From an uncultured Desulfobacterales bacterium (GTDB lineage: Bacteria > Desulfobacterota > Desulfobacteria > Desulfobacterales > Desulfosudaceae), in assembly GCA_964439745.1 (NCBI GenBank), contig CAYTQK010000001.1, positions 1 to 40,512 of the forward strand: 40,512 nucleotides of DNA. The letters are read 5' to 3'. Below are positions 2,606 to 38,115 of the stretch, one piece after another. Below the pieces are notes generated by a model. The model searched no databases. It had not been told where the DNA came from and saw only the letters and a program-made list of their open reading frames with translations. A program made the translations under genes and the position numbers. Numbering within the stretch: the first letter of the stretch is position 1; each line of letters opens with the position of its first letter.

Positions 2606-2795
2606 TTTAGAGCAAAATAACCAGGGTCCGGGAAAATTAACCGGCGGCGTAATCCGGCAGCCAAGGGGCCGACCGGACAAAAAAAGATGGCATGGTTATT
2701 GCTTTTTTCATAGTCAGCAGGTGAAATAGTTTTTCCGGTTCCGGCACGAACGAACCGGGATTGAGACCAAAGGAACGAAGCGCCCGTGTTTTCAA

Positions 2796-2824
2796 TTGAC
2801 AAGCCGGCGGTTCGTTCTTATAGT
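2796..2824 (+). promoter_or_regulatory. sigma70-type promoter candidate, TTGACA-17 nt-TATAGT
   Basis: TTGACA at 2796..2801, a 17-nt spacer, then TATAGT at 2819..2824. It lies about 138 nt upstream of ATG 2963. Confidence 0.5.
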
Positions 2825-2905
2825 AATAAAAATTCGGGGCTTGCGGTCATAGGGGCCGCCCCGGAACGGAACCTGCGGTTAAAATTGTCAGCCTATGTTG
2901 CTATT

Positions 2906-2942
2906 TTAACAAAACCACCGGAAGGTTTTCCGGTTAACAAAA
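2906..2942 (+). promoter_or_regulatory. Leader element: hairpin CCGGAA-GGTT-TTCCGG flanked by direct TTAACAAAA repeats
   Basis: TTAACAAAA occurs at 2906..2914 and 2934..2942. A 6-bp stem spans 2918..2923/2928..2933. An alternative, mutually exclusive stem is AAAACC 2911..2916 / GGTTTT 2924..2929. The element sits just upstream of the RBS of the selenoprotein gene. Confidence 0.3.
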
Positions 2943-2962
2943 TTAAGGCGAAGGAGGTCATA

Positions 2963-3283
2963 ATGAGCGACATCGAAGTCACCACTCCTGCCCAGGAGCA
3001 GATCGGTGAATATTTCAAGGACAGGGAGATCCAGCCCATACGGATTTTTCTCAACGAAGGCGGCTGAGGCGGCCCGTCCTTTGCGATGGCTCTGGATGAG
3101 CCGCGAGACACAGACCATGTTTATGACATCGGAGATTACAAGTTTATCGTGGACAAAGCGTTCATGGAACAAGCCAAACCGGTCAAGGTGGATTTCACCC
3201 GGTTCGGATTTGCCATTTCTTCCAGCATAGAACTGGGACAGGGCTGCGGCAGCTGCGGAGATAAAGGTTCCTGCTGCAGCTGA
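2963..3283 (+). CDS. HesB/IscA-like (A-type Fe-S carrier-like) selenoprotein; in-frame UGA 3065..3067 read as selenocysteine
   Basis: Track ORFs 2786..3067 and 3086..3283 share one frame and are separated only by TGA plus 6 sense codons. Read-through gives ...IRIFLNEGG-U-GGPSFAMALDEP...YKFIVDKAF...GQGCGSCGDKGSCCS. The UGA falls at the invariant Cys of the GGCxG motif. The RBS GGAGG lies 5 nt before ATG 2963, and a strong terminator follows 3283. Confidence 0.75.
3069..3104 (+). promoter_or_regulatory. Candidate SECIS hairpin immediately 3' of the UGA
   Basis: GCGGC 3069..3073 pairs with GCCGC 3100..3104. CGUCC 3075..3079 pairs with GGAUG 3094..3098, with one G-U pair and a C/A mismatch between the two stems. 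The 14-nt apical region is UUUGCGAUGGCUCU. Folded by eye only. Confidence 0.4.
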
Positions 3284-3307
3284 TGTAAATGCTGCCTGCC
3301 TGTATAC

Positions 3308-3351
3308 CCCCGTTTCTTTCCGCTACCGCGGAAAGAAACGGGGTTTTTTTT
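3308..3351 (+). terminator. Rho-independent terminator
   Basis: Perfect 16-bp stem CCCCGTTTCTTTCCGC (3308..3323) / GCGGAAAGAAACGGGG (3328..3343), 4-nt loop, then T8 at 3344..3351. Confidence 0.9.
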
Positions 3352-3460
3352 GTGCGCCGCCCGGGTTGACCCCTCCGACGCTTCATGATAAGACCGGATA
3401 CAGTCGCACCGGTGCATGCCGGCCGCCTGGCCTGACAATCATAAAAGCGAAGGAGAAAAA

Positions 3461-4174
3461 ATGGAGGCCGTCACTTATACTCTGGACAACGAGATCGCCA
3501 TTGTCTCGCTCAACAGCGGGGAAAACCGGTTTAATAATGAATTTCTGGAAAATTTTCTGGGGATCCTGGATGAAATCGAGGCGGACACGGACGCCCGCAC
3601 CCTGGTGGTGACCTCGTCCCATGAAAAAATCTTTTCCAACGGCATCGACCTGGACTGGCTGTCCGGCTTTATCAACGCCGGGGATATCGACGGGGTCAAA
3701 AAATTCCTCTACCGCCAGAACGACATGTTCCGGCGGCTGGTCACCTATCCCCTGGTCACCGTTGCCGCCATATCCGGGCATGCCTTTGCCGGCGGCGCCA
3801 TCCTTTCCTGCGCCTTTGATTTCCGGCTGATGCGTTCGGACCGGGGCTATTTCTGTTTTCCGGAAGTGGATCTGGGCATTCCTTTTCTGCCGGGCATGCT
3901 GGAACTGCTGAAATCAGCCATTCCCCTGTACAAGATGGATGAGATGCAATACCTCGGTTCCCGGCTCACGGCCGCAGAATGCCAGCAGCACCATATCATC
4001 ACCAAGGCCTGCCACCGGGACGACCTGATGAGCGAGACCCTGGCCTTCGCCCGCACCTGCAACAAGACCCGCCACACCATCGGGGAGATGAAAGCGCGCA
4101 TGAACCGGCATATCGTGCACGCCCTTGATGTGGAGGACCCGCCTTACATCGAGCAGGGCCGACTGGTTCCCTGA
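3461..4174 (+). CDS. Enoyl-CoA hydratase/isomerase (crotonase) family protein
   Basis: Crotonase fold signature AAISGHAFAGGAILSCAFDFRLM...FCFPEVDLGIPF. I prefer ATG 3461 (MEAVTYTL...), which follows the RBS GAAGGAG, over the track start at 3416. Confidence 0.9.
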   Translation: MEAVTYTLDNEIAIVSLNSGENRFNNEFLENFLGILDEIEADTDARTLVVTSSHEKIFSNGIDLDWLSGFINAGDIDGVKKFLYRQNDMFRRLVTYPLVTVAAISGHAFAGGAILSCAFDFRLMRSDRGYFCFPEVDLGIPFLPGMLELLKSAIPLYKMDEMQYLGSRLTAAECQQHHIITKACHRDDLMSETLAFARTCNKTRHTIGEMKARMNRHIVHALDVEDPPYIEQGRLVP

Positions 4175-30015: not shown

Positions 30016-30044
30016 TTGCAAAACCGCCTGTTTTGATTTATGTT
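30016..30044 (+). promoter_or_regulatory. sigma70-type promoter candidate, TTGCAA-17 nt-TATGTT
   Basis: Hexamers at 30016..30021 and 30039..30044, about 55 nt upstream of ATG 30099. Confidence 0.3.
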
Positions 30045-30098
30045 GAAAAGAGCCCGTTTCATGCGGAGCAAATCCCAACCTTCAAAACAGGAACAAGC

Positions 30099-33000
30099 AT
30101 GAGAACAATCATCGTTGTCCTGATTCTGTCGGCCGCAGCGGTTACCGCCGCGGCCGCTCCCCTGGCCAGTCCGGACGTACCCGCCCCCCTGCAGCCCTGG
30201 ATTGACTGGGTCTTGTACGGAGAAACAACCACCGACTGTCCACTGGTTTACAATGATGTCTCCCGGACATTATGTCTCTGGCCGTCTCCGCTGACACTCT
30301 CCTGCGGGGAGGATGACGCCGAATTCTCACAGACCTGGACCAGCTATGTGCCGGACACCTGGATTGAAATTCCGGGCAGCAGCCGTCTCTGGCCCCAGGA
30401 GGTCACCGTCAACGGCCAGGCAGTGGCGGTCGGCCGTCAGCAGGACCGGCCGGCCGTGCGCCTCTCCGAACCCGGAACGTACCGGGTGCAGGGCCGCTTT
30501 ATTTATGACCAGCGGCCGGAGTGGATGCAGGTGCCGGCACAGACCGGCCTGGTGCACCTGGCCATTGATGGCAAGCCGGTCGCCTTTCCCCGCCTGGAAG
30601 AAAACGGCCGTCTCTGGCTGCGCCGGCTGTCAGCAGCTTCTCCGGCGGATACGCCCGAAGACCGTCTGCAGGTCCGGGTCCAGCGCCTGGTGGAAGATGA
30701 CATCCCCCTGCGGCTGGTTACCCGGTTGGAGATCACCGTTTCCGGAAAAACCCGACAAGTCCGCCTGGGGCAGGCCGCCACCGACGCCTTTATCCCCATG
30801 GAACTGTCCAGTCCGCTGCCGGTCCGGATTGATAAAAACGGTATGCTGCAGGTCCAGGTCCGACCCGGGCAATGGACCATCGAAATCACCACCCGCCACG
30901 TCGGTCCGGCCGCGGAACTGTCCCCGGAAACGGCCGGACGCTTTCATGACAAAAATGAAATCTGGGCGTTTGCGGCCGACCGCCAGCTCCGCCTGGTTAC
31001 CGTGACCGGTCCGCCCCAGATCGATGTCCGCCAGACCCGACTGCCGGACAAGTGGAAACAATTTCCCGCCTATCTCATGAAGCCGGAAGCGGTCATGCGC
31101 CTGGTGATAAAAAAACGCGGGGATCCGGATCCGGCCCCGGACCAGCTCCACCTGGACCGCACCTTCTGGCTGGATTTTGACGGAAAGGGCTATTCGGTGC
31201 GGGACCGTATCACCGGTTCCATGACGACCGGCTGGCGCCTGGCGGCCGCCCCGCCGTTGCAGCCCGGCCGGGTTACCGTCGACGGCCGGGAACGCTTTAT
31301 CACCCGGCTGAAAGATTCCGGGGAAATCGGCGTGGAAATGCGGTATGGCCGGGTGGACCTGTTAGCGGAAAGCCGCCTGCCGGCCGGGGATGCCCTCCCG
31401 GCGGCCGGCTGGGACCGCAATTTTCAGTCGGTGCAGGGAACCCTGAACCTGCCGCCGGGATGGTCCCTGCTGACCGCTTCCGGCCTTGACGATATCCAGC
31501 AGACCTGGCTGAAACAATGGTCCCTGCTGGACCTGTTTTTCGTGCTGATTGTCGCCGTGGCCATGGCCCGGCTTTATGGCTGGTACTGGGGCATTATCGC
31601 CCTGGCCGCCATGATCCTGATCATTCATGAACCCGGCGCCCCGGTCTGGCTGTGGCTGCATCTGCTGGCCGCCGTCGCCCTGCTGCGGGTGGTACCGGCG
31701 GGGAAAATCCGGACGCTGATCAGCGCCTACCGCCTGGGCTGCCTGATCCTGCTGATCGCCGTCAGCCTGCCCTTCCTGGTCACCCAGGTACGGAACGGCT
31801 TTTACCCCCAGCTGGAACGCTCCTGGCAGACCATGGGCGGCGTCGGCCCGGCAAAGCAGGCCGCCGCCGTTCAGCGGTTCGACGCTGCCGCGCCCCGTGC
31901 ACTCCAGGCCGAATCAAGGCCGGACCGCGAATTGCTGCCGACACCCGCCCCCAAAACCGCGGGTACGGTGGATTCCTCCTACCGGCAGGAACCGGCCCTG
32001 CACCAGTTCGACGTCAAGGCCAAGATTCAGACCGGGCCGGGGATACCCAGCTGGCAGTGGCAACAGGTAGATTTTTCCTGGAACGGGCCGGTGGCGGCGA
32101 CCGAACAGATCTCTTTTTGCTATCTTTCCCCGCGGATCAACCTGGTTCTGGCCCTGATCCAGGTGGTGCTTCTGGCGCTGTTGATCTACGGATTTTCCGG
32201 TGTCCGGTATACCCGCGGCAGCGGACTGAAATTTCCCTCATACGCGGGCACTACGACTTTTCTTTTGCTGATTATGCTGGTAAATGCAGATTTTGCAAAG
32301 GCCCAGTCCGAATTCCCACCCGAATCATTTCTCCGGGAGTTAAAATCCCGGCTGACCGCCGTGGAGAAACCCGACTGTGCACCTTACTGCGCCACCAGCC
32401 CCCGGATGCGTGCCGAGATCAACGAGAAAACCTTGACCCTCCTTATGGAAGTTCACAGCCTGGCCGACCAGGTGGCTATTCCCCTGCCCGCCTCGCCGGA
32501 GCAGTGGCTTCCGCAGCAGGTCCGCCTGGACGACCGGCCCGTCTCCGCTCTCTACCGGGATCCGCAGGACAACCTGGTGTGGCTGACGGTTCCCCGGGGG
32601 GTTCATCGCATCCACCTGAGCGGCATCCTGCCGGAACGCCGGTCGGTGCAGATTCCCCTGCCGCTGAAACCCCGCCATGTCTCCATTTCGGCCAGGGACT
32701 GGCGTGTGGACGGCCTGCACGACAACGGGCGCGCGGATGACCAGCTGCAGTTCGACCGCATCCGGCAGCCGGGAGGAAAAAGCGAGGTCCCCTCTCGCTT
32801 GGAACCGGGCGCACTGCCCGCCTTTTTTGAAATCCGCCGGGTGTTTCACCTGGGCCTGTCCTGGCAGGTCGAAACCACCGTGCAGCGCCTGACACCGCCG
32901 GGTACGGCGGCGGTGCTGGCTTTTCCGCTGCTGGAAGGAGAATCGGTGACCACCGATATCCCGGTGACGGACGGCCGGGTTCGGCTCAATCTGGGACCGC

Positions 33001-34226
33001 AGGACAAACAGTTCACCTGGGCTTCTTCCCTGGATCCGGCCGGGCAATTGTCCCTGCAGGCCGCCAACACCCTGAGCTGGCGCGAAGTCTGGCAGGTCGA
33101 TATCGGTCCGATCTGGCACGCCGAGTTCACGGGAATCCCTGTTATTCAGCACCAGGACTCCCGGGGAAAATGGCTCCCGGAATGGCGGCCCTGGCCCGGT
33201 GAAACCGTTACAATTCGTATTTCCCGGCCCCAAGGCGTGGCCGGGCAGACCTTTACCATTGAAAACAGCCTCCTGACCGTCAAGCCCGGTCAGCGCATGA
33301 CGCATGCCGATCTGGCCCTGACCGTCATCAGCAGCCGCGGCACCCAGCACCGCCTCGACCTGCCGGAACAGTCCGAACTCCAGGCGGTGGTGATTGACGG
33401 CAAAACCCAGCCCATCCGGCAGGAAGAGGGAACGGTTACCCTGCCCCTGACCCCCGGAAAGCAGCAGATCCAGCTGAGCTGGCGGCAACAGGCCTCCATG
33501 GACTGGTACTGGCAGTCTCCGCCGGTTGATCTACAGATCCCCAGCGTGGATGCCTTTACCACGGTACAGATGCCCCGCGACCGCTGGATCTTTTATTGCG
33601 GCGGTCCCCACGTTGGTCCGGCCGTCCTTTTCTGGAGCCTGGTCCTGGTCATTGCCCTGCTGTCGTTCGGCCTGGGCCGCATTTCCATCACCCCCCTGCG
33701 GTTCCATCACTGGTTTCTGCTGGGGCTGGGTCTGACCCAGGCCTCCCTGCTGACCGCCCTGCCGGTGGCCGCCTGGTTCCTGGCCCTGGGCTACCGGCGG
33801 CACATTAATATTACGGACAAGGTCTCCGGACTGACCTTCAATATTATCCAGATTTTTCTGGTTGCCCTTACTGCGGCGGCCGCTGCCGCGCTCTTTTACG
33901 GCGTCAAGCACGGCCTGTTGGGATATCCGGACATGCAGATTGCCGGCAACGGCTCCAGCGCCGCCCTGCTGCGATGGTACCAGGATATCGCCGGTCCGGT
34001 TCTCCCGCGGGCCCTGATCGTTTCTTTGCCGCTGTATGTCTACCGGATTCTCATCCTGATCTGGGCCTTGTGGATCGCTTTTGCCTGCATCCGGTGGCTG
34101 CGCTGGGGATGGGAGAGCTGGAGCACCGGCGGCAGGTGGCTGCCGATGCGGCTTCCCCGGATCCGGCCGACCGGCCCAAAAAATAAAGCAAGCCAAACCG
34201 GCGGGGATTTACCCGGCGGGGGATGA
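30099..34226 (+). CDS. Large (1375 aa) uncharacterized envelope protein: signal peptide, two paralogous periplasmic modules, each followed by a transmembrane cluster
   Basis: MRTIIVVLILSAAAVTAAAAPLA looks like a signal peptide. Hydrophobic clusters lie at about nt 31510..31790, 32135..32300 and 33590..34090. I recognise no family. I prefer ATG 30099 over the track start at 30033. Confidence 0.7.
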   Translation: MRTIIVVLILSAAAVTAAAAPLASPDVPAPLQPWIDWVLYGETTTDCPLVYNDVSRTLCLWPSPLTLSCGEDDAEFSQTWTSYVPDTWIEIPGSSRLWPQEVTVNGQAVAVGRQQDRPAVRLSEPGTYRVQGRFIYDQRPEWMQVPAQTGLVHLAIDGKPVAFPRLEENGRLWLRRLSAASPADTPEDRLQVRVQRLVEDDIPLRLVTRLEITVSGKTRQVRLGQAATDAFIPMELSSPLPVRIDKNGMLQVQVRPGQWTIEITTRHVGPAAELSPETAGRFHDKNEIWAFAADRQLRLVTVTGPPQIDVRQTRLPDKWKQFPAYLMKPEAVMRLVIKKRGDPDPAPDQLHLDRTFWLDFDGKGYSVRDRITGSMTTGWRLAAAPPLQPGRVTVDGRERFITRLKDSGEIGVEMRYGRVDLLAESRLPAGDALPAAGWDRNFQSVQGTLNLPPGWSLLTASGLDDIQQTWLKQWSLLDLFFVLIVAVAMARLYGWYWGIIALAAMILIIHEPGAPVWLWLHLLAAVALLRVVPAGKIRTLISAYRLGCLILLIAVSLPFLVTQVRNGFYPQLERSWQTMGGVGPAKQAAAVQRFDAAAPRALQAESRPDRELLPTPAPKTAGTVDSSYRQEPALHQFDVKAKIQTGPGIPSWQWQQVDFSWNGPVAATEQISFCYLSPRINLVLALIQVVLLALLIYGFSGVRYTRGSGLKFPSYAGTTTFLLLIMLVNADFAKAQSEFPPESFLRELKSRLTAVEKPDCAPYCATSPRMRAEINEKTLTLLMEVHSLADQVAIPLPASPEQWLPQQVRLDDRPVSALYRDPQDNLVWLTVPRGVHRIHLSGILPERRSVQIPLPLKPRHVSISARDWRVDGLHDNGRADDQLQFDRIRQPGGKSEVPSRLEPGALPAFFEIRRVFHLGLSWQVETTVQRLTPPGTAAVLAFPLLEGESVTTDIPVTDGRVRLNLGPQDKQFTWASSLDPAGQLSLQAANTLSWREVWQVDIGPIWHAEFTGIPVIQHQDSRGKWLPEWRPWPGETVTIRISRPQGVAGQTFTIENSLLTVKPGQRMTHADLALTVISSRGTQHRLDLPEQSELQAVVIDGKTQPIRQEEGTVTLPLTPGKQQIQLSWRQQASMDWYWQSPPVDLQIPSVDAFTTVQMPRDRWIFYCGGPHVGPAVLFWSLVLVIALLSFGLGRISITPLRFHHWFLLGLGLTQASLLTALPVAAWFLALGYRRHINITDKVSGLTFNIIQIFLVALTAAAAAALFYGVKHGLLGYPDMQIAGNGSSAALLRWYQDIAGPVLPRALIVSLPLYVYRILILIWALWIAFACIRWLRWGWESWSTGGRWLPMRLPRIRPTGPKNKASQTGGDLPGGG

Positions 34227-36989: not shown

Positions 36990-37137
36990 AAAAAGCGTTG
37001 CCGGAAAAACCCGCGCCCTGGATTGCGAACGATGGACCGAGCCCCGCGGCCTGTATTGTTTCAGCGAAAAACAAGGCCAAAGCGATCAAACACACCTAAT
37101 CAAAGGTACGTTTACCTTGTAACCGGCAGGTGATCAC

Positions 37138-38115
37138 GTGCATATCGATATTCTGGCTACAGAATCCCTGGGCGTGCGCGGTCTGTGCTGCGCCGTGCGA
37201 ACCCGGCAGGGCCGTTTCCTGATCGACCCCGGCCTGGCCCTGGGCTTCATCCGGGAGGGCCTGCCTCCCCACCCGATCCAGGTGGCCGCCGGGGAAACCG
37301 CTGCCCGCCGCATCGTCCGGCACCTGGCCGCAGCCACGGATGTAATTTTTTCCCATTTTCACGGGGACCATGTGCCCCTGGCCGAGGCCAACCCCTACCA
37401 GTTGCCCCTGGCCGAGGTGGCCCCCCTGCTGCGCCGCCCCCGCCTGTGGGCCAAGGACACCCGGGGCGAACCGGCCGGGTTTGCCGCCCGAGAACGGGCC
37501 ATTGCCGCCGCGGCCGGGCAACCCCTGCGCCGCTGCCAAGCTTCCCGCACCGGCTGCCTGACCTTTTCCGACGCCATGCCTCATGGCAATCCCCAGTCCG
37601 GGCTGGGGCAGGTCATGATGACCCGGATCGAGGAAGACGACCAGGTGTTTGTCCATGCTTCCGATATCCAGCTGCTGGACAATGAACCGATTGAACAGAT
37701 TGCGGACTGGCATCCCACGATCCTGCTGGTAAGCGGTCCGCCCCTCTACCGGCATCTCCATCCGGCAGAAGTCACAGCCGCCGCCAACCGCGTCCGCCGG
37801 CTGGCGCGCCGCCTGAACTGCTGCCTTATTGATCACCACCTGCTGCGAAGCCGGGAGGGAATCCGCTGGCTGGATGACCTGCACCGGGAAACCGCCGGGG
37901 TGGTCTGCTGCGCCGCTGATTATGCCGGTCAGCCGCGCCGCCTGCTGGAAGCCGACCGCAGCCGCTTGTACGCCGACCATCCGGTCAGCGAAAACTGGCA
38001 TGACAGGTATCAGCGCCGCAAGCTGAGCCTGCCGGCCGGGACAGGCGATCCCGGCCCAGCGGCCGAACCACTGCCCATGCCGCCCGCCGGCCACAAGGAT
38101 CAACACACCGCATGA
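37138..38115 (+). CDS. Metallo-beta-lactamase-fold protein resembling the mainly archaeal UPF0282 family
   Basis: GTG start after AGGTGA. Motifs are HIDILATESLGVRG...FLIDPG...IFSHFHGDH...MPHG...FVHASDIQ...LLVSGPPLY...LIDHHLLRS. The family assignment is from memory of the UPF0282 pattern and is not a search result. Confidence 0.7.
   Translation: MHIDILATESLGVRGLCCAVRTRQGRFLIDPGLALGFIREGLPPHPIQVAAGETAARRIVRHLAAATDVIFSHFHGDHVPLAEANPYQLPLAEVAPLLRRPRLWAKDTRGEPAGFAARERAIAAAAGQPLRRCQASRTGCLTFSDAMPHGNPQSGLGQVMMTRIEEDDQVFVHASDIQLLDNEPIEQIADWHPTILLVSGPPLYRHLHPAEVTAAANRVRRLARRLNCCLIDHHLLRSREGIRWLDDLHRETAGVVCCAADYAGQPRRLLEADRSRLYADHPVSENWHDRYQRRKLSLPAGTGDPGPAAEPLPMPPAGHKDQHTA

Follow-up and report, generated by a model that had tools for sequence, protein, structure and literature searches.

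The analysed window, a 40,512-nt stretch of contig CAYTQK010000001.1 from an uncultured Desulfobacterales bacterium, carries on its forward strand a small gene whose reading frame is interrupted by a TGA codon (Table 1). The list of open reading frames divides this region into two ORFs, 2786..3067 and 3086..3283. Their translation places both in one frame, in which they are separated by nothing but the TGA at 3065–3067 and six sense codons (GGPSFA). Translation of 2963–3283 yields MSDIEVTT...NEGG, the first UGA, GGPSFAMALDEP...GSCCS and a second UGA, and when the first UGA is read through, the product from the ATG at 2963 is a protein of 106 residues, MSDIEVTTPAQEQIGEYFKDREIQPIRIFLNEGG-U-GGPSFAMALDEP...GQGCGSCGDKGSCCS. 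A first, sequence-only reading of this DNA had already joined the two ORFs across the TGA and the GGPSFA codons, and its coordinates, frame and product length proved right. As listed, the upstream ORF begins at a GTG at 2786. The GGAGG Shine–Dalgarno sequence that it had recognised (2953–2957) lies 5 nt 5′ of the ATG at 2963; homologues begin at M-(S)-D/I/V-E-V-T, and several of them have stop codons just before that Met. The real start is thus the ATG at 2963 rather than the GTG at 2786.

The promoter and the terminator, described beforehand as strong and as textbook, respectively, were both recovered. Across 8 related loci the TTGACAA box does not vary and a TTA..T −10 box is conserved too; the terminator stem is followed by T8. 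With its own promoter, GGAGG and terminator, the unit is monocistronic. In the closest relatives, the leader between promoter and start codon is conserved in part, including a block, ATTTTAACAA. It contains an inverted repeat, GTTAAAAT (2878–2885) and ATTTTAAC (2903–2910), as well as a hairpin, ACCGGAA-GGTT-TTCCGGT, at 2917–2934, and may act as an operator or form a leader structure. The idea that the leader is a structured RNA was rejected because its fold is not significant (z −1.25), and a permissive Rfam search over 2900–3400 returned no match to it.

Table 1. Features of the selenoprotein locus (window coordinates)
Feature	Position	Strand	Basis
Sigma-70-type promoter: TTGACA (2796–2801), 17-nt spacer, TATAGT (2819–2824)	2796..2824	+	consensus scan, 11/12 matches
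5′ leader, ~138 nt	2825..2962	+	read from sequence; partly conserved in closest relatives
CDS, IscA/HesB-family selenoprotein (predicted), 106 aa, Sec at residue 35	2963..3283	+	translation; NF038090; conservation across the TGA in 77 species-level loci
In-frame UGA, read (very probably) as selenocysteine (U35)	3065..3067	+	aligns with invariant Cys of Cys forms and of solved IscA-type proteins
Longer alternative hairpin, lineage-specific	3069..3104	+	−21.7 kcal/mol, z −3.2; minimum-energy fold after the UGA in the window
Conserved core of the predicted SECIS, 5-bp hairpin GGCUC-UGGAU-GAGCC	3088..3102	+	RNAalifold consensus, pairing, synonymous constraint
True stop codon, again UGA	3281..3283	+	translation; relatives all end in SCCS or CCG before the stop
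Intrinsic terminator: 16-bp stem (3308–3343), 4-nt loop, T8	3308..3351	+	z −7.1

With Cys substituted for Sec, the read-through protein matches the NCBI model NF038090 (IscA_HesB_Se) at 111.9 bits against a cutoff of 85 (E 1.4e-32), and the match spans residues 4–97 of the protein and positions 2–101 of the 101 in the profile. The two halves, searched separately, score 26.7 and 59.2 bits, both below the cutoff. The protein shares with this family the length class of ~103–106 residues, the G-[U/C]-G-G-P motif with Sec or Cys, and the Cys-rich C-terminal tail. In 86 DNA loci and in the protein alignments, either TGA or TGC/TGT stands at the same column, and C95, C98 and C105 are nearly invariant. 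There is no substantive difference between the window gene and NF038090; the former is a further orthologue, of Desulfosudaceae-like origin.

The sequence-only reading had proposed alignment of the product to PF01521 and TIGR01911 as a check. Neither the read-through protein nor either half matches PF01521 in a Pfam search at E ≤ 1; the Cys-form homologues bear weak precomputed matches to it. The score against TIGR01911 (HesB_rel_seleno), 41.6 bits, lies below the cutoff of 66.35, which places the protein in a sister clade, that of the sister model NF038090. The score against TIGR00049 (35.9 bits) is likewise below its cutoff of 58.8. Like members of the TIGR01911 HesB-like family, the window protein is small and HesB/IscA-related and has Sec in place of the conserved HesB Cys, within a UxGP motif (U-G-G-P, residues 35–38); it carries in addition a C-terminal CxxC...CC tail. 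In place of Pfam, the NCBIfam models and the comparison with solved structures support the homology.

The family profile finds the solved IscA-type proteins 1NWB and 2APN and E. coli IscA (1R94/1S98). Its GGcGg segment falls on GGCSG in 1NWB and 2APN and on SGCSG in 1R94, so that the UGA column corresponds to the Cys of that segment; among the Cys-form homologues (~103 aa), the same column holds the invariant Cys of G-C-G-G. The proposal that the UGA occupies the place of an invariant cluster-ligand Cys is borne out by both alignments. We take the matched first ligand to be Cys35 in E. coli IscA numbering. Relative to IscA, SufA and ErpA, the window protein shows a homologous fold region and shares the position of the first ligand within GGC(S)G. 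It differs from them in having Sec for Cys at this position, and GC-x-S-C-G-x-x-G-S-C-C in place of the canonical C-G-C pair of A-type carriers. The C-terminal sequence, GCGSCGDKGSCCS, holds several cysteines (G-C95-G-S-C98-G-D-K-G-S-C104-C105-S).

A comparative scan, restricted to one genome per species and to the best 80 loci, all of which come from Desulfobacterales, Desulfosudaceae or related deltaproteobacterial lineages, found TGA at the UGA column in 77 loci and TGC in the other 3. Recurrence of the same in-frame TGA in 77 of the 80 best species-level loci excludes chance. The closest genome loci belong to Desulfosudaceae MAGs (92% protein identity), and the Sec forms include cultured organisms, namely Desulfosarcina cetonica, D. 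alkanivorans PL12 and Desulfocicer vacuolatum. The protein is conserved on either side of the TGA; downstream of it, GGPS[LF]AMALDEP... is conserved in all loci, including the six codons that precede the internal ATG, and the frame suffers no other disruption in the 77 TGA-bearing species. A single conserved frame runs across the UGA, and at the ligand column Sec alternates with Cys. Orthologues ending at the UGA, with unconserved sequence beyond it, had been named beforehand as evidence that would speak against read-through; conserved sequence continues past the TGA instead. Four metagenome assemblies with contigs syntenic with the window have the same TGA and a product that differs by one residue. 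A protein search returned full-length Cys homologues of ~103 aa together with many 65-aa fragments starting with MALDEP, which are split Sec forms. Sec predominates over Cys among the closest homologues and is nearly universal in the closest Desulfobacterales ones.

If the UGA encodes Sec, a bacterial SECIS element is expected within the coding sequence shortly 3′ of it. The consensus fold of 79 distinct Sec-form sequences, calculated with RNAalifold, is the 5-bp core hairpin of Table 1. Its stem begins 20 nt past the UGA and its loop GG falls at positions 30–31 (U of UGA = 1), inside the range of 16–37 nt accepted by the bSECISearch model. The five pairs are kept in 97–100% of the 79 Sec forms, with G-U variants and one compensatory change from C-G to U-A; as the hairpin is almost invariant, its covariation support consists of this one change and several wobble variants. 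Folded alone, the core hairpin has a free energy of −9.1 kcal/mol (z −3.9), and its motif occurs once in the window as an exact copy, while matches with three mismatches are at chance level.

The hairpin is also visible at synonymous sites. In the Sec forms, the third-position entropies of its codons GCU CUG GAU GAG are 0.17, 0, 0.47 and 0 bits, and all other third positions in the 165-nt region range from 0.55 to 1.98 bits. The four least variable of the 55 third positions are thus those of consecutive codons, an arrangement with a chance probability of ~1.5e-4, and elsewhere in this alignment the codons for these four amino acids (Ala, Leu, Asp, Glu) are free to vary. In the Cys forms (n = 9), the hairpin codons vary as well (GCG/GCC/GCA, CTT/CTC, GAC, GAA) and the hairpin is absent in seven; the two exceptions are L086, with the full 5-bp stem, and L089, with a weaker, interrupted helix. 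The constraint at the RNA level is specific to the Sec forms, as one would expect for a bacterial SECIS element.

The earlier reading had noted a hairpin right after the UGA. Such a hairpin exists (3069–3104), but it is not the one conserved in the family, which is the shorter core at 3088–3102. As a SECIS candidate, the longer hairpin was rejected: its outer pairs form in only ~8–17% of the 79 Sec forms, and shuffled sequences match it; its helix 1 is paired in 68% overall. The codons CCG CGA after GAG extend this long hairpin in the window and in loci L001–L004, where the two hairpins, long and core, share their 3′ bases and so compete. Rfam searches found no SECIS family, either over the whole window at gathering thresholds or permissively over 2900–3400; the only hits in the latter interval are sub-threshold and driven by the terminator. 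The lack of an Rfam match is weak evidence either way.

Like the SECIS of the E. coli fdhF type, the window hairpin sits within the coding sequence, a little way past the UGA in the 3′ direction, and presents G residues in its apical loop. We note the following differences between the two. First, with 5 bp (sometimes 6) the predicted stem in the window is very short, and the loop is UGGAU, not GGUC. Second, the window hairpin has no conserved bulged U. Third, its loop presumably stands ~7 nt further from the UGA than that of fdhF. By analogy with the established bacterial pathway, we infer that selenium is actually incorporated here and that incorporation depends on SelB. SelB with GTP and Sec-tRNA(Sec) would bind the hairpin at 3088–3102 and deliver Sec to the ribosome at the UGA, and the second UGA (3281–3283), which has no such hairpin, would lead to termination.

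Taken as a whole, the locus is most likely one small gene and not two, with the UGA most likely specifying selenocysteine at the position of the first cluster-binding cysteine. We hold with high confidence that the UGA at 3065–3067 is recoded as Sec in this IscA/HesB-family gene. The earlier call was correct both in what it observed and in how it read the UGA, and the checks it had proposed, as far as computation reached, all favour it. Among the alternatives, read-through by some other route is very unlikely in our estimate. A near-cognate or suppressor tRNA would then insert Trp, Cys or Gly, or the code would be reassigned, and neither SelB nor a SECIS would take part. Some database entries do have W at the position of the UGA; however, these are short contigs whose TGA was translated with code 4. 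The window itself uses the standard code: TGA is the stop codon of 7 of its 23 Pfam-supported genes, this gene included (3281–3283), which argues that the recoding is local and context-dependent and that the genetic code is not reassigned. The lack of Sec machinery in the 40.5-kb window (no selA, selB, selD or tRNA-Sec gene (selC) was found there, and no tRNA gene at all) would agree with such a mechanism, but the site alternates only with Cys, the classic Sec/Cys pattern, the Sec forms keep at SECIS distance a hairpin that most Cys forms have lost, and the family has been curated as one of selenoproteins.

We regard as highly improbable the reading in which the UGA is a genuine stop and the locus encodes two independent proteins, one of 34 aa (2963–3067) and one of 65 aa (3086–3283). 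Automatic calls on related contigs do list 34-aa and 65-aa products, an ATG is present at 3086, and the missing Sec machinery in the 40.5-kb window would fit this reading equally. However, that ATG has no Shine–Dalgarno sequence at a usable distance, and the GGPS[FL]A segment between the TGA and the ATG is conserved as protein in 77 species. Moreover, the Cys forms are single uninterrupted proteins of ~103 aa, only the fusion (111.9 bits) passes the NF038090 cutoff that both halves miss, and the invariant synonymous sites specific to the Sec forms would be left unexplained. The gene might also be a pseudogene, or an ordinary Cys-form IscA gene whose TGA arose through faulty sequencing or assembly, given that one base separates TGC/TGT from TGA. 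The comparative data already effectively refute this explanation: close relatives show the same TGA in four independent metagenome assemblies, as do 77 species whose frame is otherwise undisturbed, and promoter, RBS and terminator are intact.

For the selenocysteine reading, the practical value lies first in annotation, since splitting the gene or translating its UGA as Trp hides a selenoprotein. The prediction that standard pipelines would mis-annotate the gene came true: Prodigal-type calls split it into 34 and 65 aa, or code 4 gives Trp. Trp at the Sec position in public protein entries (P0001–P0003 and P0006; L091–L093) is a systematic annotation artefact. As a candidate residue at the Sec column, it was rejected for P0001 and P0002, in which TGA on short contigs had been translated with code 4. 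The SECIS signature, i.e., synonymous sites that are invariant in the Sec forms and relaxed in the Cys forms, could be used as a precise pattern in searches for the family.

The gene is flanked in the window by a macro-domain gene (PF01661) at 2039–2605 and an enoyl-CoA hydratase gene at 3461–4174. Among loci L005–L084, 46 of the 75 Sec-form loci with enough upstream DNA have a macro-domain gene as their immediate upstream neighbour on the same strand, and 26 of 67 have an enoyl-CoA hydratase gene downstream; neither neighbour occurs at any of the nine Cys-form loci. Unlike the Sec forms, the Cys-form loci L085, L087, L088 and L090 lie immediately downstream of ferredoxin-domain Fe–S genes. 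The upstream gene is a Fer4 plus CCG-domain (HdrD/GlpC-like) oxidoreductase in L087, L088 and L090, and in L085 the neighbour encodes a Fer4 protein, with a DHODB-type FAD/NAD/Fe–S protein after it. Elsewhere in the window no other selenoprotein or Sec-machinery gene was found, and no large stretch is left unaccounted for between the Pfam-supported genes. A 1397-aa ORF at 30033–34226 (+) has no Pfam match at E ≤ 1e-5, and an ORF at 37138–38115 and its antisense partner at 37096–38106 are also without a Pfam match.

The window gene is of an already known kind: the HesB-like family, its recoding included, has been known since 2005–2006, and a dedicated NCBI model exists. The HesB-like selenoprotein family was reportedly described by Zhang and Gladyshev in 2005/2006. 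Zhang et al. (2006) listed 11 HesB-like members and found the family in many selenoprotein-rich deltaproteobacteria (PMC1794560), a HesB-like selenoprotein was found in deltaproteobacterial symbionts of Olavius (PMC1976440), and a 2026 review treats HesB-like proteins as an established selenoprotein family with the motif UxGP (PMC13188914). The earlier statement that HesB-related selenoproteins are established in deltaproteobacteria agrees with PMC1794560, PMC13188914 and the curated NCBI model; among anaerobic deltaproteobacteria the family is common. For an archaeal HesB-like member, that of Methanococcus maripaludis, PMC11097638 cites identification by mutagenesis together with 75Se labelling; it is distant from the subfamily of the window protein and was the only precedent with 75Se labelling that we found. 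A literature search on the selenoproteins of Desulfococcus oleovorans returned no paper. To this background the present analysis makes modest additions, namely the exact conserved core of the SECIS, the predominance of Sec among the closest homologues and the recurrent macro-domain neighbour.

As to function, Sec35 would stand in for the first of the three cysteines that ligate the cluster in A-type Fe–S carriers, the other ligands would most likely come from the Cys-rich C-terminus (C95, C98, C104, C105), and the protein would bind or transfer an Fe–S cluster via a selenolate ligand. In an A-type carrier, a selenolate in the role of first cluster ligand would represent interesting, uncharacterised chemistry. 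Homology slightly favours the Fe–S carrier function; since the C-terminal motif departs from the canonical C-G-C, this function is less certain than the recoding. The CxxC...CC tail, the predominance of Sec (77 of the best 80 loci) and the macro-domain neighbour lead to another proposal, which we consider unlikely, that the NF038090 clade may act in selenolate-based redox chemistry, in chalcogen transfer or as an Fe–Se cluster protein linked to an ADP-ribose-processing enzyme, with its short, near-invariant SECIS representing a distinct mode of SelB recognition.

Finally, one Cys form (TGT) keeps a SECIS-like hairpin, GGCUC-UUGAU-GAGUC (L086:1096–1150; −6.1 kcal/mol), and its gene adjoins an IS66 transposase. 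This retained, fossil-like hairpin suggests a recent conversion from Sec to Cys, and a fossil SECIS has been reported for a HesB-like protein of Desulfitobacterium hafniense (PMC1794560).
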